Source of the DNA: Escherichia phage BSBP01
Strand: one strand, 5' to 3'
Sequence record: PQ231202.1
Length of the DNA stretch: 54,030 bases
Below are positions 2,381 to 54,030 of the stretch, in pieces (the stretch's first letter is position 1; the number at the start of each line of letters is the position of its first letter). Under the pieces are notes generated by a model. That model did no database searches. It saw nothing but the letters and a program-made list of their open reading frames with translations, and was not told the origin of the DNA. A program made the position numbers and the translations under genes.

Positions 2381-2406
2381 TTCCACATCCAACTAATGTT
2401 TCAGAA
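2381..2406 (-). promoter_or_regulatory. Copy 1 of conserved intergenic motif (plus-strand TTCAnnTCCAACTAATGT), candidate phage RNAP promoter
   Basis: Near-identical about 20-bp element recurs 7 times, always intergenic and in the same orientation upstream of minus-strand genes. Confidence 0.3.
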
Positions 2407-2428
2407 CTGCTCTGATTCGTCAAACGAC

Positions 2429-3103
2429 TCAATATCTATTGAATCGTTCTAGTGTTTTATTTACTAAATCCTTTGTCTCATCGACAGTGAGTTCAGTGAT
2501 GATTGATTCGTCATAACCCTCAATCTGGATTGCTACAAAACGCCCAACTCCAGTCACAGTGAGTCGGTTTGTTCTGTCACGAACAACTACACCAGCTTCT
2601 TGCGCGACTGCTCGCAACAATTTCCAGCGTAAAGTTCGATTTGGCACAGCAAAGCCCTTTGCCGAGAACAACTCTTTCATGAGTTCTCCAAGACAAACAG
2701 CTTCAATGTTTTGTCCTCTTCCAACTAATTCTTGCAACAGGCACAGTGTCAACATTTCTAAATTGTTGAAGTGTCCAGCGCGCTCCAAATTAAAGAACTC
2801 TGGAGGAACAGTTGAACGAGATTTAACAGCTTGCTTATATGCACGTTCTTCTTCCTGTGCAGCAAGCATTAGCATCTCTGGCTTGATGTATTTCATAGCA
2901 GAGAAGCCAGCGCGTGTGGCTTTAATTATGCGACAAGCCTCTTTCATCTTGTAGCGTTGCCACTCACCGCGCTTCGATTCTGGATTAAAATGGACCCACA
3001 TAATGATAACATCTTCCTTGGCAAGATAGACGGCATCATTATCATTGAGCCATTGCTTACACGTTGATAGTGCAATCTCTTTGTCATCATCATGATAAGA
3101 CAT
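2429..3103 (-). CDS. Hypothetical protein
   Basis: Long ORF; start placed at internal ATG (MSYHDDD) 2 nt past the stop of the upstream gene. Confidence 0.55.
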   Translation of the reverse strand: MSYHDDDKEIALSTCKQWLNDNDAVYLAKEDVIIMWVHFNPESKRGEWQRYKMKEACRIIKATRAGFSAMKYIKPEMLMLAAQEEERAYKQAVKSRSTVPPEFFNLERAGHFNNLEMLTLCLLQELVGRGQNIEAVCLGELMKELFSAKGFAVPNRTLRWKLLRAVAQEAGVVVRDRTNRLTVTGVGRFVAIQIEGYDESIITELTVDETKDLVNKTLERFNRY

Positions 3104-3104
3104 T

Positions 3105-3431
3105 TTAGTGGCCTTGTAGGATACGTTTGTTCGCAGTTTCTGCGTCGATTCCCAAATCAACTAATGTCACCAAGCACTGCGAAATCCGCTCTTGCGCAGC
3201 TTTCTCCAGAATTTGGTATTTTTCGTTGTCAACGCCTAACACATTCTTGGCATGAATGAGTGTAGCCATTAGACCATGACCCAAAGCAACAGCTTGCATT
3301 GCCTGGAGTTCAAAGTTAATTGTGATGCCAGCGAGTTCGTGCTCTTTCTGGATAATCTCAATCAACTCTTCTTTAGATTTGTCTTGTAAGTTCAAAATGG
3401 AACTCCGTAAACTGGTTGGTTTGTTGTCCAT
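3105..3431 (-). CDS. Hypothetical protein
   Basis: 108-aa ORF in the co-directional gene array. Confidence 0.5.
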   Translation of the reverse strand: MDNKPTSLRSSILNLQDKSKEELIEIIQKEHELAGITINFELQAMQAVALGHGLMATLIHAKNVLGVDNEKYQILEKAAQERISQCLVTLVDLGIDAETANKRILQGH

Positions 3432-3712
3432 TCGCGGGTTGCGATTTGCATGGACTTGTTTGGGCCGCAGTAGAAATATTTCTTAACTTCTGCAAGGGTG
3501 TATTTAGCACTACATTCGAGTATATCTTTGAAAGTGTGCTTCCAGAACCCGTCCTTCTCAGAAATTCTTACGGTGAAGTTGTTGGTCCCGTTGTAATACC
3601 AACGCCCACCAACGAGAACGAAGTGGATTGTTTCTTCCTCCTCTTCCCCACTTGGCGAAGACATTAGCACATTTCTTAACGTCAAAACTTTAGCAGAATG
3701 CTTACGAACCAT
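3392..3712 (-). CDS. Hypothetical protein
   Basis: ORF 3392..3736 with start moved to the internal Met to limit overlap. Confidence 0.45.
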   Translation of the reverse strand: MVRKHSAKVLTLRNVLMSSPSGEEEEETIHFVLVGGRWYYNGTNNFTVRISEKDGFWKHTFKDILECSAKYTLAEVKKYFYCGPNKSMQIATREWTTNQPVYGVPF

Positions 3713-3911
3713 TTTGCAACTCCTTAATTTTGGCAATTAAGTCGCGCATGATTTTAGGGCCAATAGCCAAGTCACCAGTCATATCATAAAGGTCACTGCC
3801 TATTGCTTTTGCATTATTCTCCCAACCCTCAATAAGTTCTAACAATTCTTCAATTGTGTAGCCCTTAAACTGAAAGTTTTCGTTATTAATTACGCCGTAT
3901 TTTTGAACCAT
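3702..3911 (-). CDS. Hypothetical protein
   Basis: 69-aa ORF. Confidence 0.45.
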   Translation of the reverse strand: MVQKYGVINNENFQFKGYTIEELLELIEGWENNAKAIGSDLYDMTGDLAIGPKIMRDLIAKIKELQNGS

Positions 3912-4460
3912 AGGAACTCTCCAATTTTCGATTCAGTGTTTGTGACTTCTCTTCTCATCTTTTGGCCCATGAAACAGGCCACAGAGTTGCGAAAATAGCC
4001 CTGTTTTAGGGCCATAGTCCAACCGTTTGTGTCAATTCTGGATAACTGCATTGGCGAAGGGTTACTCCCGTTAGGGTGCGGCCTACGCATCATATCTGCA
4101 TAGCAGCCTGGCAAGCTGCGGAGGCCACAGAGGCTTTGCAACCCTTCCCAATACATTCACCCAATCCACCTGCTTTGGCATAGCTGGTGGCGCGGTTTTG
4201 TGCGGATTATGCCACTCTAAGCCCTGTTTGTCCGACTTCCTCAGAGCACCAGCAGCTTGTGGCACAAACCTATTTTCGAATGACTAACATAAGCATGAGG
4301 CACAACCCTCTAATTATTCAGCCCTAACAGCTTGCTTATTTAGTTCCAATTCATCCCAATACATCGCCTATAACAAGTGAATAGCTTTTCTGCGAAGAAG
4401 TATTCCGGCCCTTTGGCCTATGTTAAAAAGATAAATGTATATGATGGAAACATTCCATCT

Positions 4461-4550
4461 TGAAGTTCCCTCGCGCAATCGGAAGGACTCGAACCTTTCA
4501 CTCCACCCTTGTGCACAGGGCTTCTACCCAGACGATATGGAAGGAACTTC
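4461..4550 (-). ncRNA. tRNA-like structured element (non-canonical; possibly degenerate tRNA)
   Basis: Minus strand carries a T-arm-like AAAGG-TTCGAGT-CCTTC, an anticodon-like hairpin GCCCT-GTGCACA-AGGGT and a closing stem GAAGTTC/GAACTTC, but spacing is not canonical. Confidence 0.2.
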
Positions 4551-4564
4551 AATGATGTTGTCTC

Positions 4565-4589
4565 TTCAATTCCAACTAATGTTTCAGAA
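4565..4589 (-). promoter_or_regulatory. Copy 2 of conserved promoter-like motif
   Basis: cttcaattccaactaatgtttcagaa. Confidence 0.3.
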
Positions 4590-4651
4590 TTATTCCAATA
4601 TTCCAAACAAAAAGAATAATAAGAATAAAATTAAATAAATGAAGAAAGTGC

Positions 4652-4681
4652 TTGACACCCATTTGGCGATAAGTGTATAAT
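4652..4681 (+). promoter_or_regulatory. Near-consensus sigma70-type promoter on the plus strand (TTGACA-N18-TGnTATAAT)
   Basis: TTGACA at 4652-4657 and TATAAT at 4676-4681 with TG at 4674-4675 and an AT-rich upstream tract; points opposite to all genes. Confidence 0.35.
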
Positions 4682-4706
4682 GCCTTTCTTCCCTAAGAGG
4701 TCAGAA

Positions 4707-4730
4707 TCAAATTCTACTAATGTTTCAGAA
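4707..4730 (-). promoter_or_regulatory. Copy 3 of conserved promoter-like motif (variant)
   Basis: tcaaattctactaatgtttcagaa. Confidence 0.25.
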
Positions 4731-4791
4731 TTAAGCCGAAGGCCAATGCGAGTACAAAACCCGCTTGGCACTTCGACGGAACAGCCTGGAA

Positions 4792-5028
4792 CTACACTGC
4801 CTTCCAATCTGAATCAAACAGTTCCTTCGGTCTTGTATAAATTATCGAATTAATTCCCAAGAAAGTATGATTTCCATACTTCTTAACTTCCTGGTAAGCA
4901 AACCCATCTACCCAATTGCCGCAGTGGGTTTTAATCTTTGTAGCAAACAGAATTCGATAGTAGTGACCACGAGGCTGGTGGAAGAGAATATCTTCTGGCT
5001 TGATTGAGTTGATATTTAAATCAGACAT
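4792..5028 (-). CDS. Hypothetical protein
   Basis: 78-aa ORF overlapping the next gene by a few nt. Confidence 0.45.
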   Translation of the reverse strand: MSDLNINSIKPEDILFHQPRGHYYRILFATKIKTHCGNWVDGFAYQEVKKYGNHTFLGINSIIYTRPKELFDSDWKAV

Positions 5029-5563
5029 TTAGGAATAATACTCCTTCAGAGAAGATATAGTCGCTGCCGAAGTCTTTCACAATTGCTTCCCAATCAATAT
5101 ATGGTGCAAGGCGGTCTGGAATATCCAGTGCTTCACTTTGCTTGAAGTAGTCTGCAATTGAATCGCAACGAGTAATGAACATGTCGTTCAAATCATTCAC
5201 AGTGAAAATATCAATATCACCACTGCGGAATGCTGCAAGAATTACATCCAAATCGGTGTCAACAAGCAGCTCATTGAACTTATCATACTTGCGAATGCTG
5301 AACAGGCCATTGGCAAAGCAAACTTCTGTTACATCTGCTTCACTTGATTCAAGTATGTCATAAGTCCCATCTTCTGGGTATTCGATGCCGTATTCTTCAT
5401 GCAAATAATCCCGCATGTCGAAATCATAGTGACGCCAAGACAGGCCATCAATCCACGCATCTACAAATTCAGAATTAGTTTCGCCTGTGTAGAAACGAAC
5501 CAATAAGGTTTCATCTCTACGCCAGGACTTAAGATTTTCTATTGCTTGGATAATGGTGCTCAT
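5021..5563 (-). CDS. Acidic protein, possible ArdA-like antirestriction (DNA mimic) protein
   Basis: 180 aa, highly Asp/Glu-rich; C-terminal segment resembles the ArdA C-terminus by eye. Confidence 0.4.
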
Positions 5564-5838
5564 ATGCTCTCCATTGTGTCAGTTAATGCACTATGTATTT
5601 TACGAAGTTTTACTAATCTTTCCTCGCTATTTTTAATAAGCGTCCGCATAATAGCTTCTTTCTCATTGAAGCTAATTTTCATGGAAGTTTCTCCAACCTC
5701 CATATAAGCATTTAATCGAACTTCATCGCTTAGATTCAGCGCAGACATTTGATGCAATTCTTTCTTTGCCTTATCTATACGGGCATAGTGATGCTGAATC
5801 TCTGCTGGTATGTCTTGATAATTCATCGGATTCTCCAT
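5560..5838 (-). CDS. Hypothetical protein
   Basis: 92-aa ORF. Confidence 0.45.
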
Positions 5839-5846
5839 TGATGAAG

Positions 5847-6260
5847 TTATGCTGGAAGTTCGAAGTGCGGCATATCAATCAGCTTCTTCTTACCTGGTGC
5901 AAGTGGTGGATACGGCTGATTTTCATCAATACGGCTCCAGTTCCCACCCCAACGAATGGTAATTCCAAGCTCTTTTGCAGCTTTGAACATGTGATGAGCT
6001 AAAACTTTGAATCGTTCGAGGTCATTCCAGTCAATTGGATATGGTGCAATGTCCAAAGCGTTACCAGACATGTGTCGGCTTACTGAAACTTTGGTTGCAC
6101 CTTGTTTTAACAGTTCTTGTTGACGTTCATAAGAGCGTAAACCTTCCAAAACAGTCACATCAAAAGGCATGGTTTCACATGCCCGTTTGAAAACTGCAAC
6201 TAATGAAGGATTTACTCCCTTAAGTCGGTCTAAAGAACGTTGACCGAGCTTAACATTCAT
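5847..6260 (-). CDS. L-alanyl-D-glutamate peptidase (M15 family) endolysin-type enzyme
   Basis: [11 protein letters not shown] and DMPHFE zinc-ligand motifs typical of M15 peptidases such as the T5 endolysin. Confidence 0.75.
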
Positions 6261-6535
6261 TATTTGCCCTTTAACGCATCGTTTAAAGTGTTGTTTAACA
6301 GTGTGTTGAGGTTATCAAGTTCATCAAATGATGCCTGAGCCTTGGTAACTTCATCAACAAGTAATGCTCGAAGTACTGCGTGCTCAACAAGCACCCATCC
6401 GTCAATACAGTCGATGAAAACTTTAACTTTATCAACTGGAGCATTTAAATCAAAGGCCGACAAGTCAGATTTGGCATTATCTAGCTTACCTTTTGCCTTG
6501 CTTAGTTCAACTGGAACTTGGTCAATCGAAATCAT
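6260..6535 (-). CDS. Hypothetical protein
   Basis: 91-aa ORF, start adjacent to the stop of the upstream gene. Confidence 0.45.
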   Translation of the reverse strand: MISIDQVPVELSKAKGKLDNAKSDLSAFDLNAPVDKVKVFIDCIDGWVLVEHAVLRALLVDEVTKAQASFDELDNLNTLLNNTLNDALKGK

Positions 6536-6765
6536 TGAAAGCTATTCCCACTAGGGTGAATGGTTAATTTGAAGGATACTAACTCTTTATTGATTGAGGT
6601 TGTTCCAATAACTGTTGCCTCAAACAACATAGATTTAGAAGTTTCCTTCCCCACACGTTCCAAGTATTTTACAACTCGGTCGTGAATTACTGCCCACTGG
6701 CGATATTCGCAATCAGATTCCAGCAGGTATTGAACCCCATCAATGGTAAATTCGGTTGAAGTCAT
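6532..6765 (-). CDS. Hypothetical protein
   Basis: 77-aa ORF with 4-nt overlap coupling. Confidence 0.45.
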   Translation of the reverse strand: MTSTEFTIDGVQYLLESDCEYRQWAVIHDRVVKYLERVGKETSKSMLFEATVIGTTSINKELVSFKLTIHPSGNSFQ

Positions 6766-7121
6766 TTCTTCTCCGCACAGCTGGTGGATAAGATAGGGTA
6801 GTTTGCTTTGAGGAAGTCTCCGTCACGGAAAATCTGAAGTACAAGTTTGTCTTCATGATTTATAAACAGTGCAGCAAACCTGCTATCTTTAATGTTGTAA
6901 AACAAAACTGTTGCAGGATTGGGTTCATCACTTGGAACCTCTATCCAAACACCAGCTTCAGGAATTATTGACGCAATCAGAGGTTGGCTATCTCCAATAT
7001 TATCAATTACAAGAGCATATGCTCCACATTTGAAGTTCTTTGTTGACGCTTTAGACTCAAAGCTGAAGAACGCCAAAACAATTAATGCTAAGGTATAAAT
7101 AATGATGTATTTAAGTCTCAT
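6762..7121 (-). CDS. Putative secreted protein
   Basis: N-terminal signal-like hydrophobic segment MRLKYIIIYTLALIVLAFFSFESKA. Confidence 0.45.
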   Translation of the reverse strand: MRLKYIIIYTLALIVLAFFSFESKASTKNFKCGAYALVIDNIGDSQPLIASIIPEAGVWIEVPSDEPNPATVLFYNIKDSRFAALFINHEDKLVLQIFRDGDFLKANYPILSTSCAEKK

Positions 7122-7173
7122 AATTCCTCCAATAATTAATCGAGGCCACTCGAAGTGGAATGACCTCTGTTAA

Positions 7174-7878
7174 TTACAGCTTCTTGATAAGCTCTGCGGA
7201 TTTGCTTGCAGCAACTTTCATTTCATCGCGTGCGGCTTTAGAGATTGATGCCTTGTCCACGCGAATATTACAGTTACCAACTGCAATCTTGCCATCTTCT
7301 GTTGGCGGAAGCTGAGTTAACTCCAGCATTTGCTCTAGCTTTTGCAGAAGAATGCGTTGTGCTTCGATTGCATTTTGAATATTTAATGTTTCCATTACTG
7401 CTCTCACCTTTCTTGAGAATGTTCCAGTTAGTGCCAGGCGTACTTGCAAACCTTTGACGCCAGCATAGTCCACATTCACTTTATTGGCTGGCGAATGTGG
7501 ATGTTTGTACACGTTTGTTACAGTTGCCCAATTGCCATTTACCCAAATAACATCGCCAACTTCCACATCTTTTCCGAGAACATCTTCTTCATCGGATATT
7601 TCCTGCTTCTTGAACTCCTCCACAGGAAGGAATACTGGATTTATTTGGTTAGGGAACTCAATTGTTGGGGTTTCCAAGGCTGGTGGTCTGTCAAGCAACT
7701 TGACTATACGACCAAGTTCAAAATTAAAGTACCCACCAGAATATTGCAGTTGAACTACATCACTAAATCGAAGTATATTTACAATTAAATATTCTCTGTT
7801 GTTATAGACTAATACATCACCAGTTTTAACCAGATTGGCTGGTATTTCGACAACCTTAGTTCCCATGATATTCCTCAC
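7174..7878 (-). CDS. Hypothetical protein
   Basis: 234-aa ORF. Confidence 0.55.
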   Translation of the reverse strand: MRNIMGTKVVEIPANLVKTGDVLVYNNREYLIVNILRFSDVVQLQYSGGYFNFELGRIVKLLDRPPALETPTIEFPNQINPVFLPVEEFKKQEISDEEDVLGKDVEVGDVIWVNGNWATVTNVYKHPHSPANKVNVDYAGVKGLQVRLALTGTFSRKVRAVMETLNIQNAIEAQRILLQKLEQMLELTQLPPTEDGKIAVGNCNIRVDKASISKAARDEMKVAASKSAELIKKL

Positions 7879-7987
7879 GCATTACTGCACAGTGTTTGCA
7901 AACCCAAATGGTTACATAATCGTTTTCGTGTGAAATTTCCCAATTATGTAGCCCTATAAAACATAAGATTTTCATAGGGCATCTCTA

Positions 7988-8365
7988 TTAGAACGGAATG
8001 TCGTCGTCGAAGTCTTTCGGCTCGTTCGGGTTGTAGTTGCTATTCTTCGTCTGTTGCTGAGCAGGTGCTTGCTGTTGTGCAGAAGGTTGCTGGCGTGGCT
8101 GTTGCTGTTGAGCGGCAGCTTGAGGTTGAGCTTTGGCTTTAGCTTTCTCTTCACGCTTACGCATCATTTCATCAACTTGTTCCTGAGTCATGATGGTGAG
8201 TTCCAATGAGGTAAATTCGGTGTTGCCAGCTTTCTTATTCCAGCCAGACACCCAATACCAGATACCTTCTACGTTAATGCGACCACGAACATCTGGATGA
8301 TTTTCAGCTTTCTTGAAGCTGTTGTTGCCCAGAATACCAGTGTTTAAATCGTTGAATTGTGCCAT
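7988..8365 (-). CDS. Small SSB-like protein ending in the host SSB tail motif DFDDDIPF
   Basis: N-terminal about 60-aa domain, Gln/Ala/Pro-rich linker, C-terminus DFDDDIPF matching the E. coli SSB tip as recalled. Confidence 0.55.
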   Translation of the reverse strand: MAQFNDLNTGILGNNSFKKAENHPDVRGRINVEGIWYWVSGWNKKAGNTEFTSLELTIMTQEQVDEMMRKREEKAKAKAQPQAAAQQQQPRQQPSAQQQAPAQQQTKNSNYNPNEPKDFDDDIPF

Positions 8366-8437
8366 GATTAATTTCTCTTTAAGTTAATTACAGTTTAAGT
8401 TTCAGTGACATTGCTAACCACGGAATAGCTTTGTCTC

Positions 8438-8458
8438 TCTTCAAATCCAACTAATGTT
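8438..8458 (-). promoter_or_regulatory. Copy 4 of conserved promoter-like motif
   Basis: cttcaaatccaactaatgtt, about 75 nt upstream of the SSB-like gene. Confidence 0.3.
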
Positions 8459-8499
8459 AGATTAATCATGGACACCTACAAGAGATGCCCATTGTTAAT

Positions 8500-8733
8500 T
8501 TAACGAGTCAGTTTGTCAAAGTACCACATATCTTTGGTAATCCACTCACCGCTTGGTGATTTAATGTAGCAACTACCATTGATTGTGTATTTGAACTCTG
8601 CTTGCTGCAATTCTGCAAAGGTTTTGCATTCATATTTGTAAACAAAGTATGTAGGCAGTCCAATGACAACCAGAACGGACAGCAACATTAGTACGAAAGG
8701 CACTACAATATCTTTCATAACCCAATTCATCAT
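8500..8733 (-). CDS. Small membrane protein
   Basis: N-terminal TM segment VVPFVLMLLSVLVVIGL. Confidence 0.4.
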   Translation of the reverse strand: MMNWVMKDIVVPFVLMLLSVLVVIGLPTYFVYKYECKTFAELQQAEFKYTINGSCYIKSPSGEWITKDMWYFDKLTR

Positions 8734-8832
8734 ATCCCCGCTTGTAGAAGGAGTAGGTTTGCAAAACCCAGAATAACTGTAAGTATAACGACACTGATAG
8801 TGAGTGTCAGTATTATATATTTGATACTGCCC

Positions 8833-9120
8833 TCACATTACCTTTGATACAGGAATTGGGTCGATTGTGGTTTCAGGTTTATACCAACTTACTTCGCCAG
8901 AATCTTTAACAAGCTCCCACAAATTGGAGAATGTACGATAAGATAAATTGCGGTTATCATCATTAACGACAAAACCCAAAGGAGATTGAATATACGCACC
9001 GAGTGTACCGTTGTTGCGAGGAACCCCGTCACCACGACCTGCGACGATTTTGTATTCTTTACCGTTGGTAAAGTTGTAATTTGTTTTACCAACATAACGC
9101 AAAATTGAATTCTTGTTCAT
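8833..9120 (-). CDS. Hypothetical protein
   Basis: 95-aa ORF. Confidence 0.45.
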   Translation of the reverse strand: MNKNSILRYVGKTNYNFTNGKEYKIVAGRGDGVPRNNGTLGAYIQSPLGFVVNDDNRNLSYRTFSNLWELVKDSGEVSWYKPETTIDPIPVSKVM

Positions 9121-9437
9121 TTCTTAACTTTCTCCCATTTAGATAGGCCACCTTCGAGGTTGAAGATGCGGTTACAACCAGACTCATCTTTAATGACAAA
9201 TTGAGTTCCGGTCAATTGAATTGGCTCAAGTGCACCAAACAGCACTTTAGGTTTTGATAGGCTGGTGGCAAGAACAACATAAACTTTGCTTGGGCAAATA
9301 TCAAAAGCAAAGTCACGAGTGTAAACCAAATCACCAACTTTCAAATATGCTGGCAACATGCGACCTGTGGCTGGGTCACGCTGTAAACGAGTACGCTGTT
9401 TCATAAATGCTCCAAGTTGATTAATAATATTCAGCAA
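9117..9437 (-). CDS. Hypothetical protein
   Basis: 106-aa ORF. Confidence 0.45.
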   Translation of the reverse strand: MLNIINQLGAFMKQRTRLQRDPATGRMLPAYLKVGDLVYTRDFAFDICPSKVYVVLATSLSKPKVLFGALEPIQLTGTQFVIKDESGCNRIFNLEGGLSKWEKVKK

Positions 9438-9466
9438 CCACTCTCGCTACAAAGTGGTTGAGGAAA

Positions 9467-9697
9467 TTATTTGACTTCTTCCCAAGACCAGATTCCACCC
9501 TCCAAAGGAACACTTTCTCCTTCTTCAAAGTACGAATAACCATTGGCGTCTTTACGGTCGCTGTCTTTTGAAATACTTATGCGAGGCTCGATTCCATAAC
9601 CTCGCTTCACATGCATAACCCTTCCCTCAATCACATCACCAACCTTTGGTGAGTTTGCTCCATAAGAGGTTGATTTTACACATTTAAACTTTGTCAT
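9467..9697 (-). CDS. Hypothetical protein, paralogue of 9694..9921
   Basis: Shares N-terminal KFKCV-ST and a W-W motif with the adjacent ORF. Confidence 0.45.
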   Translation of the reverse strand: MTKFKCVKSTSYGANSPKVGDVIEGRVMHVKRGYGIEPRISISKDSDRKDANGYSYFEEGESVPLEGGIWSWEEVK

Positions 9698-9921
9698 TGT
9701 AATGCGCCTTGTTCACAAATGTCTGCAAATTCTGCACGATGGTCACGCTGCCATGTCCAGAATGCACCATTCATAGGAACGACAGCACCTTTACGGAATG
9801 CTGGAGAAATGCTTTCAGCAGATTTGGTTACTTTAAATTCCAAAGGCGAAATAGCTTCACCTTCAATGATTAAGCCAACTGGAACGTAGTCTTTGGTTGA
9901 AGCAACACATTTAAATTTCAT
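9694..9921 (-). CDS. Hypothetical protein, paralogue of 9467..9697
   Basis: Tandem duplicate, see above. Confidence 0.45.
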   Translation of the reverse strand: MKFKCVASTKDYVPVGLIIEGEAISPLEFKVTKSAESISPAFRKGAVVPMNGAFWTWQRDHRAEFADICEQGALQ

Positions 9922-9923
9922 GA

Positions 9924-10127
9924 TTAACCTTTTGGTGGAATATTTCCACTATTGTCTATTAACTTTCCACGATAAATATTAAACCCACAAGCAACACAGA
10001 ATGCATTATCCAAAACTACAGGACCATACATTCCAACTGCTTCATGTGCAACATGGTCTACATCAATGCTATTGCAGCGAGGACATATTACTACATCCTC
10101 TTCGTCAAAGTTCATGATATAAAACAC
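9924..10127 (-). CDS. Small zinc-ribbon protein
   Basis: CPRC...CVAC cysteine pairs. Confidence 0.45.
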   Translation of the reverse strand: MFYIMNFDEEDVVICPRCNSIDVDHVAHEAVGMYGPVVLDNAFCVACGFNIYRGKLIDNSGNIPPKG

Positions 10128-10410
10128 CTAATTCTGATTCAAGTTTAAATTCACGAAAGAAATCCAATGTTACAAATCGGATTTTACCTTCATCATCAAC
10201 TACGTTACAAGACATTTCGGAATGGACCATACGGCCCATCTTCAAGGCGACTTCTGAAAGGTTTGCTTCACCAGTTCCAGATATAACACGGTAAATCTTA
10301 TACGGCTCGAAACCTGCCAAAGAGTTATTACGGCGTGGTACGAGCATCATGCCAGTTTTAGTAGCCATAATAACTCCGATATTAAAAGTACATGAATGCT
10401 CCAACAACAA
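10105..10410 (-). CDS. Hypothetical protein
   Basis: 101-aa ORF. Confidence 0.45.
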   Translation of the reverse strand: MLLEHSCTFNIGVIMATKTGMMLVPRRNNSLAGFEPYKIYRVISGTGEANLSEVALKMGRMVHSEMSCNVVDDEGKIRFVTLDFFREFKLESELGVLYHEL

Positions 10411-10465
10411 GGAACACGAGTGGGAACATCAGAATACAGAATACAAGTTTCTTTACAATATCCAT

Positions 10466-10684
10466 TTATTTCACCAGGAAGTAGAGAACAATCAGGAATC
10501 CAACACATGCAATAATGGTTGGCATATACTTATCACGAGCACGAGGAACATATTGTTGCTGTTTAGTCTTGCCTTCCAAATGATTCATTAATTCAGTATG
10601 ATTCATTTGTTGCAGAAATGTGTTGAATTGCTGGTCGTTCATTATTTGTTCCTTAGCTTTACATTCTTCCCAACAAGTACACAA
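10466..10684 (-). CDS. Small tail-anchored membrane protein
   Basis: C-terminal TM segment IIACVGFLIVLYFLV. Confidence 0.35.
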   Translation of the reverse strand: MCTCWEECKAKEQIMNDQQFNTFLQQMNHTELMNHLEGKTKQQQYVPRARDKYMPTIIACVGFLIVLYFLVK

Positions 10685-10981
10685 TCTTTAAGCCATCGTG
10701 TTTTTAGATTTGCTGGGAACCAGGATTTAAATTCTTCGGAGTAAACCCTTGTGAAATGGAATTCGGGTGTGGTTAGTATGAGCATCCCACCACCAGTTCT
10801 TAGTAGCAGATTCTCGTAACTCACTTAATACTCCAATTCCCAAATACCAGGTTAACTATTTTAGCCACTTTACGTGCTGGCATACGAGGATTTGCAGCTC
10901 TCGCTAATTTCTTAGCCTTACGCTTTGAAGCACCGTACATAGCCATGTAGGTAACCGTTTTGGTCATATATTTGAGCTTCT

Positions 10982-11164
10982 TCATTTTCCACTCCGAGCA
11001 GCATCAAGCTGTTCTTCAAGAAGATTGATGTGTTGGCCTAAGAACAAGGCCATTTCACGAGAAATTACAACAGATTCGATTTTCGGATTTTCTGCCACTT
11101 GCTTAACACCTTGCAGGAAACTCCAAAGACTCACTTCTTCATTTTCGAACATGGTTAACCTCAA
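10982..11164 (-). CDS. Hypothetical protein
   Basis: 60-aa ORF. Confidence 0.35.
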   Translation of the reverse strand: MRLTMFENEEVSLWSFLQGVKQVAENPKIESVVISREMALFLGQHINLLEEQLDAARSGK

Positions 11165-11394
11165 TAGAAGTTTGCTGCCAGATTTTCCAACACTTTGACA
11201 GTCAAAACATCATCGTTAAGTTGTTGGAAAGTGATATCAATCCCAACTTCATCTTTAATACGAACAACAAGCTCACTTAAAATAGTGTCAGCCCAACCAC
11301 AATAGTTGACAATAATTCTCTCTTGAAGGAATTCTACTTTCTCTTCGTAAGAGGCCAACTCGATTAAGTCAGCCTTTAATTTAAACTGTGTCAT
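11161..11394 (-). CDS. Hypothetical protein
   Basis: 77-aa ORF. Confidence 0.4.
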   Translation of the reverse strand: MTQFKLKADLIELASYEEKVEFLQERIIVNYCGWADTILSELVVRIKDEVGIDITFQQLNDDVLTVKVLENLAANFY

Positions 11395-11579
11395 CTTGCC
11401 TCCAGAATTTGATTTAATCCACTGAACACGATTTCTTCATGTTCGTCAGTTGTACATGCATTGATGTAATCAAAGTCATAACCAACAAACTTCTCCGCCC
11501 ACTCCTGTAAACGAAGTAAAGAATTGAAGTACAACCTTTGCTCTACACCATTTAATTTGAAGAAGACGATGAAGTCCAT
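11391..11579 (-). CDS. Hypothetical protein
   Basis: ORF 11391..11663 trimmed to the internal Met to avoid overlap. Confidence 0.35.
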   Translation of the reverse strand: MDFIVFFKLNGVEQRLYFNSLLRLQEWAEKFVGYDFDYINACTTDEHEEIVFSGLNQILEAR

Positions 11580-11581
11580 GA

Positions 11582-11824
11582 TTAGCCTCTTACTTTCAGG
11601 AAGTCTGGATGTGCGGCAGTTGCCACAACTTTGTGATGTTTGTCGTTCTGGATTGCTTGCCAAACATATTCAGGATATGCGGCATTCTTCCACACCAGTT
11701 TGTTTTCGTAAATTGATGTGCCACACATTAGGTCTGCCAACATTATTGCTCTGGTCCTAGTATTAACCAAAGCATGAGAAACAACGCCATCACGATTAAT
11801 GTATTGATAGAGTGCATAATTCAT
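11582..11824 (-). CDS. Hypothetical protein
   Basis: 80-aa ORF. Confidence 0.4.
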   Translation of the reverse strand: MNYALYQYINRDGVVSHALVNTRTRAIMLADLMCGTSIYENKLVWKNAAYPEYVWQAIQNDKHHKVVATAAHPDFLKVRG

Positions 11825-11826
11825 AA

Positions 11827-12033
11827 CTAAACTCCGTATCTCTTGTATTTGTCGCCTTTGGAGACTTCCAAATATTCCTCAAATGTGAAAGTCCTCTCCT
11901 TGCTGTTTAATCTTGCCAACGACAAGTCTGCAACAAATTCGGCATTAAAACCTTTGTTAGAGGTCTTTCTCATGTGTGCCCCACCTCGTGTAAAGAATGT
12001 TGCACCTTCTGGTAAATCTTCGAAATTAGTCAT
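11827..12033 (-). CDS. Hypothetical protein
   Basis: 68-aa ORF, first gene after the repeat-rich non-coding region. Confidence 0.4.
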   Translation of the reverse strand: MTNFEDLPEGATFFTRGGAHMRKTSNKGFNAEFVADLSLARLNSKERTFTFEEYLEVSKGDKYKRYGV

Positions 12034-12323
12034 TTTATTCTCCTAAGTTAAAAGAAAACTCCCTACAGAACGATTGTGGAGGTCTTGTCTTACCTCAGTC
12101 CACCTTAAAGTTGTAGGGAGTTATATAGTATTCCTGTGTGTGCCGCCATCAGGGACTTCCTAGTCTGGTGGGCGCGTCGCAATCCAGCAATATACCACAC
12201 GTTTTTCACAGGCTATATATGTGACACACAAAGTGTCTAAAAACTACAATGATTAGCTTGGAGACATAATCTCTCTAAAATCTGTCACACAATTTCAGCA
12301 GAATTTACAGAGATTTGGTCTTA

Positions 12324-12340
12324 TTCACATGCAACTAATG
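12324..12340 (-). promoter_or_regulatory. Copy 5 of conserved promoter-like motif (variant)
   Basis: ttcacatgcaactaatg. Confidence 0.25.
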
Positions 12341-13238
12341 ATAAATGGACATGCTTAATTGCAACTAACTCATCTGCCAAATAGACGAATTTTGTCACAA
12401 TTAAACATGCGTCATTAATTACAGGTTTACTCCCATCTTGGAATGTATTTGGCACATTAAGATTGGAGCAAGTAGGTACGGAAAACCGACCATGTACAGC
12501 ATAATAAAACAAATTAAATAAAGGGTTTTATCCCAATATTGTCACAATATTACATGCGATGATAAAGCCTTCGCTTGGCTGGAAGCCAGTATTCATGCGG
12601 GTTGCAAGAATATTGGGTCAATACTGATACAGCTATTACATGCGAAATTGGCACAAATACTGTTACAAAATTAACATGCCAGATTGGTAGACGATTGTAT
12701 CTTCGAGGTGATTAGTCCTCTAACAATTCTGCCACATTCCAACATGCCAATTTGTAGCAATATTTACATGCCATACTGCGACGCAATTGTCACAATATTT
12801 GTTGCTCAAAATCGGGGCGGCTTCTGCGTGTAAACGAGAGGCTTTGCTCCGACTCTTCTCTTCTTTCGAATTCTGATTGAAAGAAAGAAGCATGTCCAAA
12901 AGTTCCAGTCTTGTAAAAGTTATCTCCCGGCTTGTGGGTGGGCCTTGATAATAGGAGTAACAGGTTGTCCGCTATTTTGTGCACTGAGCTAGGATTGAAT
13001 CCAGATTGCACTTTACTAGGTGGCGAACCAAGATTGAAACTAATAGACATGCTATAGGTGAAGTACAAGTTTCGAAGTATATAATCCTACTCTTTGCCAT
13101 GGTTGCTGGAACTATGGGTAGCTAATCCAGGGAGTTCGACAATTGCCACATTGCCACAACACTTTGACTCAAGCTGTCATGCTGAATGTTTCTAGAATGA
13201 TTCAACATTACATGCGGAATATTTATCCGTATTCTTTT

Positions 13239-13258
13239 ACTTCACATCCAACTAATGT
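13239..13258 (-). promoter_or_regulatory. Copy 6 of conserved promoter-like motif
   Basis: cttcacatccaactaatgtc, just downstream of the RNAP gene. Confidence 0.3.
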
Positions 13259-13361
13259 CGAATATTGAAACAATATTACATGCAGCAATATTGCTTGAAT
13301 ATTGGGATTTAGTTGTTGATGCACAAGAATAGGGCCAGTGTTTCCACCAGCCCCGTTTCTC

Positions 13362-15302
13362 TTATTGACAGAAGTAGTAAGCGTGTTCGCTCATCAGAAG
13401 CTCTTCGGTTACGATGTTCTCATGATACATCTGAATGCCACCGAGTTGCTTAGACAGATTCTCGAATTGATTGTTGGTTACGAAGATTTCAACATATGCT
13501 GCACGAATAACTTCCATCATACGTGGAGCATCTGCCAAACAGCAACGGAAACAATCGTGGATTGAAGTGAAACCACGAAGACCAGCTTCTTTAGCTTTAA
13601 CAGCAACAGTACGAGCAACCAATGCGTCGATACCTTGAATATAGTTGACTACGAAAGTACGCTTGAATTCCTCTTTAGTAGGATTGGATTCACGAATGGT
13701 CCAAGGTTTCTCTTCCTGAATCTGGCCAAAGATAACACGAGTTTGAGAGTCAACACGAATGCTGAATGCATCACAGATTTCACGAGATGGGAAGCAAGGC
13801 TTCATTACAACCTGACCATCAGTGTGCTTATAGGTGATGTATTCCTTGTTAAGCTCAACACAACGTTGATATGCAGCATCAGCAGCTTTCTCAATGAACA
13901 TGTTAATCTTAGCACCCAATGCGTTATGGATTGCTTCCACACACAGTTCAGCAAATGCCTCAGCCTTCTCAACTGGAATCTGAAGAGATGCAGTCATGTA
14001 AGAGATAAAGTCAGAAGAACCAGTTAAAGCAGCTTTACCACCACCATACTGAATAGCCATGTATGGAGTTTTGATAAACTTACGACCAGCTTTCGGATTC
14101 AAGAACTCTTCCATGATTTCAACAGAAGGTTTCATTGAAGACTTATCCAGCAGCTTCAACAGTTCACGAAGACTCAACTGGTATGGGTCAGATGCTTTAG
14201 TCTCAGAATCAACCAGACCTGTTGCACGAGCCATTTCCATGTTACCAGCAATGAATGCCAGATACTGAGTACCAGAACATTTAGCATCTAAGCCAAAGCC
14301 TACACGAGAATCGCATTCACCTGTAGTCTCAAACTTGAACCAATCCAGAGCCAGACGAACATAAGTGAATGGCTTAGAAGGACGTTCAGCTTTAGGCATG
14401 TTCATCATGCGAGCAAGTGAACCAGCTGGATTCTGAGCAACATAAGTTAAACGTTTAGCAGAGCACCAGTCTCCACCAGAAATGTCTTCCAGCTCAGCCA
14501 TGAACATGTTGTATGCAATGGTAGTAGAACCATCTTCGTTAAACTTCTTAACGATGTTCTCAACATTGTGAGAATACAAGCAACGAGCAAAGTCAGAGGA
14601 TTGTGGGTTAGGACCAGCACATGCTACATGATACAGGCGACCACGGTTATCAGCAAAGTAGTCAGAATAGAGTGTATCCTGAGTCATCATTGCTACAGCA
14701 TTGTTCCAAACATGGAGTTCAGTCTGGATTGCTTCTGGCATCTGCAAGCCACCATAAGTACGTTGTTCAAGCATGGACTGGATGATGCGAACCATCTCAG
14801 TCTCCACATGGTACTCAGTATCTTGCAGGAATTCGATTGCAGCTTTCAGAGTTTTGGATGGCTTAACTTTGCCACCTTTAACGAAAGGCTTGCGACGAGA
14901 TTCAGATGTAACACGCTCAGTGAATGGCACTGCTGTGTCTTTGGTTGTAACCAGTTCAACCCATGTGTCAGTTTGTTGGAATGACTTGTCTTCGTTCATG
15001 GTGATGAAGCCGAAGTGCTTAGCCAGACCAATGAGGTTGATAGCTGGGTCAACATAGTGCATTGCTTTCAAATCGTTGTTGTAGCGATTGGCATCAGCAA
15101 TAGAAGCAGAAGCCAGCTCAACCATCGCAATGGCAGGAACAACATCATCACGTGTGAAAGACGTCATCATCTTGAATATGGCTAAGGCAGCAATAGCACA
15201 AGTCTGAGGCTGCATATAGTTCTGCTTCTCTTTGGCACGGTATACCAGAGCAGTGATAGCAGGAACAACAGATTTGATAGTTTGAGTGGTGATAGTAGTC
15301 AT
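13362..15302 (-). CDS. Single-subunit T7-like DNA-dependent RNA polymerase, N-terminally minimal (646 aa)
   Basis: Motif A LDAKCSGTQY, motif B RKFIKTPYMAIQYGGG, motif C TSIHDCF and a VNYIQGID segment align to T7 RNAP catalytic motifs. Confidence 0.8.
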   Translation of the reverse strand: MTTITTQTIKSVVPAITALVYRAKEKQNYMQPQTCAIAALAIFKMMTSFTRDDVVPAIAMVELASASIADANRYNNDLKAMHYVDPAINLIGLAKHFGFITMNEDKSFQQTDTWVELVTTKDTAVPFTERVTSESRRKPFVKGGKVKPSKTLKAAIEFLQDTEYHVETEMVRIIQSMLEQRTYGGLQMPEAIQTELHVWNNAVAMMTQDTLYSDYFADNRGRLYHVACAGPNPQSSDFARCLYSHNVENIVKKFNEDGSTTIAYNMFMAELEDISGGDWCSAKRLTYVAQNPAGSLARMMNMPKAERPSKPFTYVRLALDWFKFETTGECDSRVGFGLDAKCSGTQYLAFIAGNMEMARATGLVDSETKASDPYQLSLRELLKLLDKSSMKPSVEIMEEFLNPKAGRKFIKTPYMAIQYGGGKAALTGSSDFISYMTASLQIPVEKAEAFAELCVEAIHNALGAKINMFIEKAADAAYQRCVELNKEYITYKHTDGQVVMKPCFPSREICDAFSIRVDSQTRVIFGQIQEEKPWTIRESNPTKEEFKRTFVVNYIQGIDALVARTVAVKAKEAGLRGFTSIHDCFRCCLADAPRMMEVIRAAYVEIFVTNNQFENLSKQLGGIQMYHENIVTEELLMSEHAYYFCQ

Positions 15303-15368
15303 TTGTAAGTCTCCAAGATTGTGTATGATTTAACTGAAACGGATTATAATAGCGTAGCCATTACACAA

Positions 15369-15384
15369 TTCACTTCCAACTAAT
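15369..15384 (-). promoter_or_regulatory. Copy 7 of conserved promoter-like motif, about 70 nt upstream of the RNAP gene
   Basis: ttcacttccaactaat. Confidence 0.3.
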
Positions 15385-15550
15385 ATCACAAACCTGTGCC
15401 ATTGTTACAACAGCACGGAGACTTTGACCTTGACCCATAAGCGAAGCGCCTAACTTGGTGTTGTTTGAAAGCCGATAGGCTGTAGGAAAAAGTTGGAGTA
15501 GGGACCGTATTTAAGTCCGATAGGACGTTGGGCTTCCCCTCCCCGCTGGC

Positions 15551-15815
15551 CCAAAAATAAAATTATAATATTGCCACAATTCTAGTCTCGTTAATATCGT
15601 AACAATTCGAGTATCGTAGCTTTGTTACGAATTCTAGTCTCATTAATTCTGTAGCAATATTGAAAATAAAAAAAAAATTATAAAAAAAATTATTTAATAG
15701 TCGGTTTTCCATTCGAACAAATTTCGGCGAGATACAGTTGACCGACCATGTACCATTTGGTTTTAACTTTACGCATTCCTAATATTACTCTTAATATTGT
15801 AGCAATATTGGGAAT
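15551..15815. repeat. AT-rich non-coding region with direct and inverted repeats and poly-A runs
   Basis: aattctagtctc at 15578 and 15630; inverted repeat cgtaacaa/ttgttacg at 15598-15629; TGTAGCAATATT copies also seen in the 12.3-13.3 kb region. Confidence 0.45.
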
Positions 15816-15925
15816 AAATAAATATTTAATTTACTTGTCTTATTCTAGCTCAAAGAGAAACGACGCTAACGCATCGAATCTCTTCTCGCATATAACTGAC
15901 AAACGTCAGCCTTCACCGTATCCAA

Positions 15926-17026
15926 TCATAGTTCAAATCCGCCTAGAGCATTGGTGTCAACTTCGGAGTCAATCTGCCCAACAAGGTACGAACTAATCTC
16001 CGTTTCTTGTGGAGCTACTTGTACAGCATCCGAATTCAACCATGCGTTAATCCAAGGAATCGGGTTAGTAGCACCTTTGAATGGAGCATCCAATCCAACT
16101 GCTTGCATACGAATATTCGTGATATATTCCACATATCCGCACAGAATTTGCTTGTTTAAGCCAATCATTGAGCCATCTTTGAACAAATAATCAGCCCAAT
16201 CTTTCTCTTGTTGGGCCACATTTTCGAACATTATTTGGCATTCTTGACGGCATTCTTTAGCAATTTCAGCCATTTCTGGGTCATCAACACCACTTGCAAG
16301 AAGGTTCAGCATGTGCTGAGTTCCGGTCAAATGGAGTGCTTCATCACGAGCAATTAAGCGAATAATCTTGGCATTTCCTTCCATTAACTTGCGTTCAGCG
16401 AAGGCAAATGAGCAAGCAAAGCTAACATAGAAGCGGATTGCTTCCAGTGCATTAATGGACATGAGGCATAAATACAGCTTCTTCTTAAGCTCACGAAGAG
16501 AAACTTTATCTTCATGCAGATGCCACATGGAAGTCAGATGTTGAAGCTCGTCATAATATTGGGAGATACCAATTGCACGCATTTTAATGTGCTCATTCTC
16601 CACAATTTCATCGAAAATTACGCTTGGGTCTGTAACAATGTTACGGATAATATGCGTGTAAGAACGAGAGTGAATTGTCTCTGAGAATGACCAAGTTTCA
16701 ATCCAAGTTTCCAGCTCAGGAATGCTCACAATTGGAAGCAAAACTGTAGTTGGTCCACGTCCCTGAATGGAATCAAGCAGGATTTGGTATCGTAAATTGC
16801 TAGTGAAGATGTGCTTCTCGCATTCAGGCAGACCAGCATAGTCAATTCTGTCCTGGCTAACATCAACCTCCTCAGGTCGCCAAAAGAAAGATAACTGCTT
16901 CTCGATTAACTTCTCGAAGATGCTGTACTTCTGTTGGTCATATCGAGCAACATTAACGTTCTGGCCAAAGAACATTGGCTCTAGTAGTTGGTTATTCTTG
17001 GTTTGTGAAAAGGTAGTGTAAGCCAT
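15926..17026 (-). CDS. nrdB: Class Ia ribonucleotide reductase small subunit
   Basis: Very close to enterobacterial NrdB along its length ([37 protein letters not shown]..); no nrdA found in the window. Confidence 0.9.
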
Positions 17027-17580
17027 TACAGATTTCCTAGATACTCATAGAATTTATGGCCACCATAACGTCCCAAACCTTTAACATTCTTGAAGTTGCA
17101 CTTCTCCGATGCTGTACAAAAGTGGGTTGCTTTGGTGACAGAGGGTTGATTAAATAGTACAAAAGATATTGCAACATTAATAGTGTCCAGAACTTGTTGT
17201 TGTTCTGTGGCATAATTAATCTTTGCTACATGCTTCCATTGAGCATTCTTCTTCTTTGCTTCTCGTGTCCATGCAAATTGGTTGCGTTGATAGACAACAT
17301 CACAAACGGTGTTAGCGAATGGCTTCCCGAACTCAGTTCTATTACGGACGACATTAGCTACCAGAATCTTTCCATGTTTGTCTTCTCCGCGAGCTTCATA
17401 CCAGATAACTTTAGTGTAGCATTCTAGCTCTTTGCGTTGTGAAGAAGATAGTTTCAGACTTCCATTTAAATAAGAGTGACTTGCAAAATCTGTAATAGCA
17501 GAATTCACTGCCCCAACCGAAGCTGGGGCGTTGATGTGAACTAAAGCTGTCAGAAGTGCAAGGACTTTGAATGATAACAT
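17026..17580 (-). CDS. Secreted SleB/CwlJ-type cell-wall hydrolase, probable endolysin
   Basis: N-terminal signal-like segment; [17 protein letters not shown] motif of the Hydrolase_2 family; immediately downstream of the holin. Confidence 0.7.
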
Positions 17581-17597
17581 TCGAGTTCCTTACCATT

Positions 17598-17939
17598 TCA
17601 TCGTGCCTTCTTGAACCACGTCAAAGGATTAAGTTGTTTGATTGCGCCAGAGAAACTTTCCCTGACAGTTGTGATAATGAGGTTGGCACCAATGACACCA
17701 ATCACAATAGCTAACACCAACTGCATAGTGACGTTAGTTGTGAAAGTTTCAAATGTACCTGCGACCTGAAATGCAAACAGCCCGATTAAGCTACATAGCG
17801 TCGCATCCAGCAACGCTTTGCTTAAGCCCTCACTCTCATATGCACCACGGATTAAAGCCGTCAGGCCAGCCAACAGTCCATGCCAAACGCCGTATTGGTG
17901 CATTGCTTCCCAAATCATCTGGAAAGTTTGTCTATCCAT
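17598..17939 (-). CDS. Putative holin
   Basis: 113 aa, three predicted TM segments, basic C-terminus, directly upstream of the hydrolase. Confidence 0.55.
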   Translation of the reverse strand: MDRQTFQMIWEAMHQYGVWHGLLAGLTALIRGAYESEGLSKALLDATLCSLIGLFAFQVAGTFETFTTNVTMQLVLAIVIGVIGANLIITTVRESFSGAIKQLNPLTWFKKAR

Positions 17940-18469
17940 TAGAATTCATTCCAGTCGATTGTTTCGGTTAGGTCGAGTTGAGACAGTTTGATACGCTTCT
18001 TCTTAAGTTTAACAAGCAGCTCGTTGTCAGACTTCTTGGCCATACCAAGCTCAACCATGTCGATGAGAATGCCAATTTCTTCCGTCAATGGTGCAAGTTT
18101 CTTCTTACGCATAAACTCGTTATATTTCACACGGTTTTCTTTATGCTCGACAAACTTCTCGCCATCAAACTTCCAAAAGTGTCTGTTTTCTTCAACACCC
18201 TCTGGCAGCGACTCCAGCTCAACTATGTTCCCACCCAGCGGTGTAGCCACAGTATCACCAGGGCCAAAGTCAATGTGTCGAATAGTCCCATCATTTTCGT
18301 ACACAACTTTGGCTGTACCGTCCTTTAAAGAATCACGAATTTTATACCAACATGTTCCATTCTCGTCACAACCGAAGAGAATCTTGTGCTCGTCCTTGAG
18401 CACTTGTTGGCTTTCAGTCAGGTTCGTATTCTCAACAAACCCTTCATACTTACACAGAATAGCTGTCAT
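17939..18469 (-). CDS. Putative tail fibre assembly (chaperone) protein
   Basis: 176 aa, directly downstream of the last fibre gene. Confidence 0.5.
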   Translation of the reverse strand: MTAILCKYEGFVENTNLTESQQVLKDEHKILFGCDENGTCWYKIRDSLKDGTAKVVYENDGTIRHIDFGPGDTVATPLGGNIVELESLPEGVEENRHFWKFDGEKFVEHKENRVKYNEFMRKKKLAPLTEEIGILIDMVELGMAKKSDNELLVKLKKKRIKLSQLDLTETIDWNEF

Positions 18470-19802: not shown

Positions 19803-19811
19803 TACATTACC

Positions 19812-27680: not shown

Positions 27681-27746
27681 CTATTGAAATTAATACACAT
27701 TCAAATAATGTTAAAGAGGTAACCGGGACGAATCCCGGCACCATTC

Positions 27747-42179: not shown

Positions 42180-42357
42180 AATCCACTAATGGCTGAGTTT
42201 GCACGGGATTGATGCGAATGATGCTGCCTAAACCAGAATCGGCCTTTAAATACAGGCGGTTTAGTGGCATGTATGAATCACAGATAGGACATTGCTGCGT
42301 TATGAAATCATCTTCTGCAATTTCATAATGGCAGTTTGGACATTGTATTGTGCGCAT
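42172..42357 (-). CDS. Small zinc-ribbon protein
   Basis: CPNC...CPIC. Confidence 0.4.
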   Translation of the reverse strand: MRTIQCPNCHYEIAEDDFITQQCPICDSYMPLNRLYLKADSGLGSIIRINPVQTQPLVDCD

Positions 42358-47214: not shown

Positions 47215-47460
47215 TTACAGTTGAGTGATAACTAGGGAGAAGTCCAGGTCGTTCATACAAGAGATTAACTCTTGCTCATTGACGACAGGACCAGATAAAG
47301 TTTTAATGAATGCCTGATACATTGAATTGGCAGCATAATCACTTCCAAATAATGTTCCAGCATTCTCGGTAATTACAGACAGCACAGCTTCCCGTGCGTC
47401 TTCACCTTTCTTGACAAAATGGAAATGGTCCACTTTGTCGAATATAGATACAACAACCAT
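47215..47460 (-). CDS. Hypothetical protein
   Basis: 81-aa ORF. Confidence 0.45.
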   Translation of the reverse strand: MVVVSIFDKVDHFHFVKKGEDAREAVLSVITENAGTLFGSDYAANSMYQAFIKTLSGPVVNEQELISCMNDLDFSLVITQL

Positions 47461-53903: not shown

Positions 53904-54030
53904 TCGGGATGAGGAGTAACCCAAATAAAAGCCTGAACTTTCTTTCTGCACAACACAATCAGCGCAACTAAGCCGTATCGCTACGGTATGCCAGACGCTC
54001 TCTTGAGCCTTTTGAACAGAGGCATAACTG
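53904..54030. repeat. Second copy of the 127-bp terminal repeat
   Basis: Identical to 1-127. Confidence 0.9.

Follow-up and report, generated by a model that had tools for sequence, protein, structure and literature searches.

A co-oriented, conserved 20-nt motif in Escherichia phage BSBP01 and related chaseviruses is a probable promoter for the phage's T7-type RNA polymerase

The putative promoters of phage phiEcoM-GJ1 (GJ1) are reportedly those of Jamalludeen et al. 2008. The RefSeq record of this phage (NC_010106) carries nine "regulatory" features, "putative phage promoter 1" to "putative phage promoter 9", and we took the GJ1 promoter predictions from these GenBank features. The paper on phage PP101 hypothesised eight consensus promoter sequences for this phage group, a statement repeated in a 2021 review, and the ICTV profile from 2022 gives chasevirus promoters as "not yet identified". 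Here, we analysed a stretch of 54,030 nucleotides (nt) from Escherichia phage BSBP01 (PQ231202.1; hereafter the window), in which a motif of about 20 nt recurs in gene sense, mostly between gene clusters, on both sides of the gene for a single-subunit RNA polymerase (RNAP). The element is an already-predicted feature, known as a prediction since the 2008 annotation of phiEcoM-GJ1. What is new is the comparative support, namely conserved islands in diverged flanks, a concerted variant in Proteus phage Myduc, absence from the Nefertitivirinae and placement behind hairpins, and with this support we put the probability that the motif is a promoter recognised by the phage's own T7-type enzyme at roughly 0.75.

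The window holds a full genome, assembled as a circle of 53,903 bp, from the genus Carltongylesvirus (family Chaseviridae), with ST32 and phiEcoM-GJ1 as kin (megablast and tblastn), and its long open reading frames (ORFs) are all on the minus strand. We searched both strands of this genome with the pattern TTCANNTCCAACTAATGT, allowing up to 2 mismatches. Compared to an expectation of 0.06, there were 7 matches (starts at 2382, 4565, 8440, 12324, 13241, 15369, and 47338), all of them on the plus strand as written, which is gene sense on the minus strand. The copy at 4706/4707 has 3 mismatches to the pattern and was recovered by a relaxed pattern and by a weight matrix. All 16 above-threshold matches of the weight matrix in the window were on the gene-sense strand, against 0 to 5 matches on both strands together in shuffled sequence. 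In gene sense, the consensus reads AACATTAGTTGGAwkTGAA, often with TTCTGA ahead of it and a purine run such as GAGA behind. The conserved block is asymmetric and spans ~20 to 22 nt, with high information content over ~22 positions and a flat profile beyond, and nothing at a constant spacing downstream, such as a −10-like element, was conserved. The initial annotation had listed seven copies, all in the same orientation, confined to the left 13 kb and missing between 17 and 54 kb. Pattern search and weight matrix confirmed all seven within 2 nt of where it had placed them, and the common orientation held throughout; the confinement did not, as weaker copies lie at 47338, 27694, and 42175, the first of which is found by that annotation's own pattern. 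The polymerase gene, the hairpin behind it and the motif copies are as follows.

13362 to 15302, minus strand: gene for a predicted single-subunit RNA polymerase of 646 amino acids (aa; Pfam RNA_pol, E = 1.3e-18).
13331 to 13354, minus strand: intrinsic-terminator-like hairpin of 10 pairs with a T-rich tail, directly 3′ of the RNAP stop codon.
15369 to 15387, minus strand: motif copy GATATTAGTTGGAAGTGAA, 67 nt 5′ of the RNAP ATG; also in GJ1 (~position 570) but without annotation there.
13241 to 13259, minus strand: motif copy GACATTAGTTGGATGTGAA, just 3′ of the RNAP gene and terminator; GJ1 "putative phage promoter 1".
12324 to 12342, minus strand: motif copy ATCATTAGTTGCATGTGAA, ~290 nt 5′ of the first small gene (ATG at 12033); GJ1 promoter 2.
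8440 to 8458, minus strand: motif copy AACATTAGTTGGATTTGAA, the top-scoring one, 75 nt 5′ of the SSB gene and with a hairpin ahead; GJ1 promoter 3.
4706 to 4724, minus strand: diverged copy AACATTAGTAGAATTTGAT, first of a tandem pair, with a −27.5 kcal/mol hairpin ahead; GJ1 promoter 4.
4565 to 4583, minus strand: motif copy AACATTAGTTGGAATTGAA, second of the tandem pair, with ~300 nt without an ORF behind it; GJ1 promoter 5.
2382 to 2400, minus strand: motif copy AACATTAGTTGGATGTGGA, 77 nt 5′ of the gene at 1967-2305; GJ1 promoter 7.
27694 to 27712, minus strand: weaker variant AACATTATTTGAATGTGTA, between the gene for a 1223-aa tail protein and the baseplate hub gene, which are 66 nt apart; GJ1 promoter 9.
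47338 to 47356, minus strand: weaker copy AACATTATTTGGAAGTGAT, inside an 81-aa ORF and ~140 nt 5′ of a 288-aa gene; GJ1 promoter 8.
42175 to 42193, minus strand: weak copy GCCATTAGTGGATTGTGAT, where a small ORF has its 3′ end and immediately 5′ of the gene for the terminase large subunit.
2714 to 2732, minus strand: weak intragenic match AGAATTAGTTGGAAGAGGA; GJ1 "promoter 6".

GJ1 promoters 1 to 9 correspond one-to-one to the window sites so marked. The GJ1 20-mers (nnACATTAGTTGGAnnTGAA) are identical to the window copies or differ from them by 1 to 3 nt, and they have the same syntenic placement relative to the RNAP, SSB, gp28/gp29, gp39, and baseplate hub genes. At the two late promoters, 8 and 9, the window copies (47338 and 27694) are more degenerate than those of GJ1.

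The motif is placed between gene clusters, typically 3′ of terminators or other hairpins, apart from three weak matches that lie within genes (47338, 42175, and 2714). Stable hairpins were found no more than ~25 nt upstream in 6 of the 10 sites tested (z = −2.6 to −6.8), and the terminator-like hairpin behind the RNAP gene sits 70 nt before the copy at 13241. Compensatory stem changes between genera were seen in the hairpin preceding the SSB copy and in the GC-rich, terminator-like hairpin directly ahead of the 27694 copy, although the latter did not reach significance against shuffled sequence (z = −1.2). The strong copies occupy the first 13 kb past the polymerase gene, with the weaker variants further along.

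We compared the window with eight genomes of the Cleopatravirinae (GJ1, PYps23T, 4HA13, PP101, Y2, SSEM1, phiA050, and Myduc) and two of the Nefertitivirinae (Spp001 and pAh6.2TG). A blind search for repeated 20-mers returned the motif as the top or a near-top non-coding repeat in the window, GJ1, Y2, phiA050, PP101, and Myduc. Weight-matrix scans of eight Cleopatravirinae genomes gave 12 to 19 sense matches versus 1 to 3 antisense matches, and those of 4HA13, PYps23T, and Myduc gave 16 to 20 versus 3. MAFFT alignments of syntenic intergenic regions showed a nearly invariant motif within flanks that were diverged or could not be aligned; at the site equivalent to the 4565 copy (promoter 5), for example, the flanks are unalignable between genera and AnCATTAGTTGGAnnTGA is invariant.

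Two lineages depart from this pattern. In Myduc, whose polymerase is 66% identical, TTGGA is replaced by TTGAG or TTGAA at all strong copies, a concerted shift such as would be predicted for many sites that follow a single trans-acting reader. In the Nefertitivirinae, whose polymerase has 33% identity, the weight matrix found no motif but only 1 to 4 weak sense matches (scores 10 to 12.5) and 0 to 1 antisense matches. The sequence of the putative promoter changes along with the polymerase lineage. In pAh6.2TG, we observed eight sense-strand hairpins of the form GGCTC-N3-5-GAGCC followed by (A/G)AAAG or ACAAGTCACTA; they lie at 17985-19432, 23195, and 44471, most of them clustered just 3′ of the polymerase gene, and one copy carries the compensatory change GGCAC...GTGCC. 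This hairpin is a candidate for a different signal serving a different polymerase lineage.

The weaker sites differ in how well they are conserved. The 27694 variant, which consists of TTGAA, TGTA, and then TTAATTTCAATAGG, was present at the same place in 8 of 8 aligned genomes, with a degenerate form in Y2 and SSEM1. Since this copy is conserved in a gap 3′ of a terminator, at least part of the late region would be served by the same system. The 47338 copy is doubtful because it scores above threshold in the window, GJ1, PYps23T, 4HA13, and phiA050 but falls below it in PP101, Y2, SSEM1, and Myduc. The 42175 copy recurs in relatives, where its conservation is inseparable from coding constraint. 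Finally, the 2714 match (GJ1 promoter 6) is probably a false positive conserved as coding sequence, because its equivalent keeps TTGGAAG in Myduc, unlike the strong copies of that phage.

The other partner in the proposed pair is the product of the gene at 13362-15302, which is 98% identical to its ST32 counterpart and 92% identical to that of phiEcoM-GJ1. Its alignment with T7 RNAP covers motifs A and C as well as DxRGRxY, and its catalytic residues are all present (DxRGRxY, D339, R407/K411/Y419, and H582-D583). The best Foldseek matches of an AlphaFold model (mean predicted local distance difference test score, 69.6) were T7 RNAP (E = 8.5e-15). According to this model, the 646-aa enzyme is a T7-fold single-subunit polymerase; its catalytic motifs are intact, and it was the only polymerase found in the window. 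At 646 aa, it is compact for a T7-type enzyme, and its C-terminus reads YYFCQ, compared to FAFA in T7.

Together, these results are best explained by the motif being a promoter for the phage RNAP, a reading that also fits the layout, in which a terminator followed by a promoter heads clusters of genes, all of them transcribed the same way. The enzyme would bind the motif copies, and transcription would probably start at the purine run just 3′ of TGAA. The initial annotation had proposed a promoter class for the phage RNAP, and this part of its proposal stands, in agreement with the GJ1 record; its assignment of the late half of the genome to the host RNAP fares less well, given the copies present there.

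Several observations weigh against this reading. The polymerase is much diverged (14% identity to T7 RNAP in the structural alignment), its N-terminal part is half that of T7 (~215 residues ahead of DxRGRxY versus ~420), and the model has low confidence in what is putatively the specificity loop (residues 502-539); because of these three features, T7-style recognition should not be assumed. The likeness of the motif to the consensus promoters of T7, T3, SP6, and K11 is, we presume, slight, with an ATTAG block at the upstream end. The tens-of-nt spacing upstream of genes that had been claimed for all copies was found in three of the seven strong ones (15369, 8440, and 2382), but the other four (13241, 12324, 4706, and 4565) have no nearby gene and are followed by ~0.3 to 1.2 kb without a convincing ORF. 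The copy 5′ of the polymerase gene itself needs a separate explanation; it might, for example, provide positive feedback or act at the end of the genome. Lastly, our literature search found no transcript 5′-end mapping, in vitro transcription, binding, or enzyme work on any chasevirus, and a search of the literature with the motif string matched only unrelated PCR primers.

Alternatively, the motif could be the site of another trans-acting factor, either a sigma-like protein or activator that redirects the host RNAP, as at T4 middle and late promoters, or a DNA-binding regulator. The comparative data indicate that one reader constrains all copies, not which reader this is, and most proteins encoded in the left 13 kb are without known function. 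However, the motif is an asymmetric block of 20 to 22 nt that lacks a conserved −10-like element at a fixed downstream distance, and whether a genome has it or not goes with the lineage of the polymerase. A dimeric regulator is better matched by a different element, the palindrome AATATTGnnnCAATATT, which occurs in 8 copies (0.5 expected) found only in non-coding DNA to either side of the RNAP gene (12535-13303 and 15567-15809). Several of these copies have GCATGT ahead of them, and GJ1 and phiA050 share the conserved element; a dimeric regulator might use it as an operator, or it might be part of early host promoters. We therefore consider it unlikely that another factor reads the 20-nt motif.

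Much less probable still is that the motif is a DNA-processing site involved in nicks, genome ends, or recombination. All copies are on one strand, as are the nicks of T5-like and phiKMV-like phages, and in PYps23T, both boundaries of the published terminal repeat (2,339 bp) fall within motif copies, at the same position in each of the two. In the deposited sequence of that phage (NC_079178.1), the boundaries are at positions 1, 2339/2340, and 52530/52531, and the boundary sequence is ATTAGTTGGA|NGTGAA, occurring as ...ATTAGTTGGA|CGTGAA... and ...ATTAGTTGGA|TGTGAA.... Ends or terminal-repeat boundaries at the motif were seen only in this record and not in those of Y2, PM1, JL1, 4HA13, or Mangalitsa. 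In these five relatives (exact repeats in the records of Y2, PM1, and JL1; PhageTerm predictions for 4HA13 and Mangalitsa), the termini instead fall at another box that is conserved: on the left CCTATCG^GAC^TTAAATACGGTCCC, and on the right a GTCGGA-type box. Both boxes are carried by the window (15495-15524 and ~12841-12863) and by PYps23T, where they lie ~140 bp upstream and ~340 bp downstream of the deposited boundaries. The PYps23T boundaries are those expected from a template switch or recombination between two motif copies, and because such an event is probable, the deposited ends may be wrong. The lead from PYps23T, in which the motif would form genome ends, was dropped because the five relatives end at the other boxes, which PYps23T and the window have as well.

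By homology to these boxes, the window should have a direct terminal repeat of ~2.67 kb, from ~15514-15519 to ~12851-12855. This predicted repeat would hold the RNAP gene, its terminator, and two motif copies, of which the 15369 copy would lie ~130 to 150 nt inside the left end. An AT-rich stretch at 15560-15900, which contains the host promoter annotated in GJ1, would be just outside the left end, upstream of the right-hand repeat only.

A role as an RNA-level processing or stability signal in long polycistronic transcripts can be given hardly any weight, for although the copies lie between gene clusters, beside hairpins and in sense orientation, much as the RNase processing sites of T7 mRNA also lie between gene clusters, the motif has no conserved pairing potential, it stays constant where the upstream hairpins vary in sequence, and some copies stand where no upstream gene is read, as does the 15369 copy, ~130 to 150 nt from the predicted genome end.

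If the motif is a promoter for the phage enzyme, transcription could proceed in four steps. The host polymerase would make the first polymerase mRNA, which we infer because the AT-rich stretch at 15560-15900 holds the sigma-70 promoter annotated in GJ1. The polymerase transcript would end at the hairpin 3′ of the gene. The phage enzyme would then start at the consensus copies in the left 13 kb, which head clusters of small genes, the SSB cluster, and two untranslated stretches. Weak variants, at the baseplate hub gene and possibly at the terminase gene, would together with read-through supply the replication and structural genes.

The initial annotation had instead left the replication, structural, and lysis genes to the host RNAP, in an N4-like division of labour. 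This finds no support in the window. Late copies of the motif exist, and sigma-70-like matches in the late region were at the level of shuffled sequence (30 versus 33.4 and 28 versus 29.9 expected), so nothing positive points to host-polymerase promoters there. Gene-sense sigma-70 matches of at least 11/12 were found neither in the window nor in any of the ten genomes scanned, although weak or factor-dependent host promoters may escape scans of this type. The hallmarks of N4 (a giant virion polymerase, hairpin promoters, and a two-subunit second polymerase) were not seen in the window.

Outside the late region, too, sigma-70 scans gave counts equal to those of shuffled sequence, with one antisense exception. 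This match (TTGACA-18-TATAAT, 4652-4681), the genome's sole perfect sigma-70 consensus, is on the plus strand and opposes all genes. It is positioned between the tandem copies at 4706 and 4565, with A/T-rich DNA upstream (~4584-4650), and the start predicted for it converges on the one predicted for the 4706 copy, ~17 bp away. Both hexamers are perfect in six genomes (the window, GJ1, PYps23T, 4HA13, PP101, and phiA050), whose spacers have diverged; the promoter is absent from Y2, SSEM1, and the Nefertitivirinae, and it has no annotation in GJ1. It could act as a host-polymerase roadblock or switch that gates the traffic of the phage polymerase into the replication and structural genes, or it could be a transcription-primed replication origin or the promoter of an antisense RNA. 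It is doubtful, though conceivable, that the motif copies and this antisense promoter form an undescribed two-polymerase control design in which the late genes are largely transcribed by read-through from the left 13 kb.

The ORF-free stretch 3′ of the 4565 copy (4400-4560, minus strand) shows long-range pairing of TTGAAGTTCC with GGGAACTTCAA, which enclose a T-arm like that of a tRNA, AAAGGTTCGAGTCCTT. Neither tRNAs (ARAGORN) nor Rfam families were found when the window and this stretch were searched; the stretch may represent a degenerate tRNA, or else a small structured RNA transcribed from the putative promoter at 4565. Elsewhere in the window, the largest ORF is the one encoding the 1223-aa tail protein. 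Bases 1-127 recur exactly at 53904-54030, for which reason we take the circular assembly to be 53,903 bp; this 127-bp repeat stems from the assembly, in which the ends of a circularised contig overlap, and is not a biological feature. A 7-kb query (window 13000-20000) had 93% to 95% identity to Shigella phage 2KOFFS and Escherichia phage Ecp_YSF.

Compared to N4, BSBP01 is similar in having a T7-family polymerase activity of its own and in the concentration of strong phage-type promoters in the early part of the genome. It differs in that the motif is not a hairpin, that weak copies reach the late region, and that late promoters of the sigma-70 type are not conspicuous. The likeness to the T7 group (Autographiviridae: T7, T3, SP6, and K11) goes further. 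In both, the element is an asymmetric block of ~20 nt, co-oriented with the genes, present in many copies between gene clusters and often behind a terminator; the promoter varies with the polymerase lineage, and one copy is directly 3′ of the polymerase gene. The tandem pair at 4706 and 4565 can likewise be compared to phi1.1A and phi1.1B, the tandem promoters of T7. The differences are that little sequence beyond ATTAG is shared, that the chasevirus element is a predicted one, that the polymerase has 646 aa rather than ~880 aa, and that the late region has only weak variants in what is here a myovirus with ~2.7-kb terminal repeats holding the polymerase gene. The consensus is now specific enough for direct testing. 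If the motif is indeed the promoter of this polymerase, the 646-aa enzyme and its distinct 20-nt site would make a compact orthogonal expression pair, and BSBP01 would be a myovirus that joins a podovirus-style transcription programme with long, polymerase-bearing terminal repeats.

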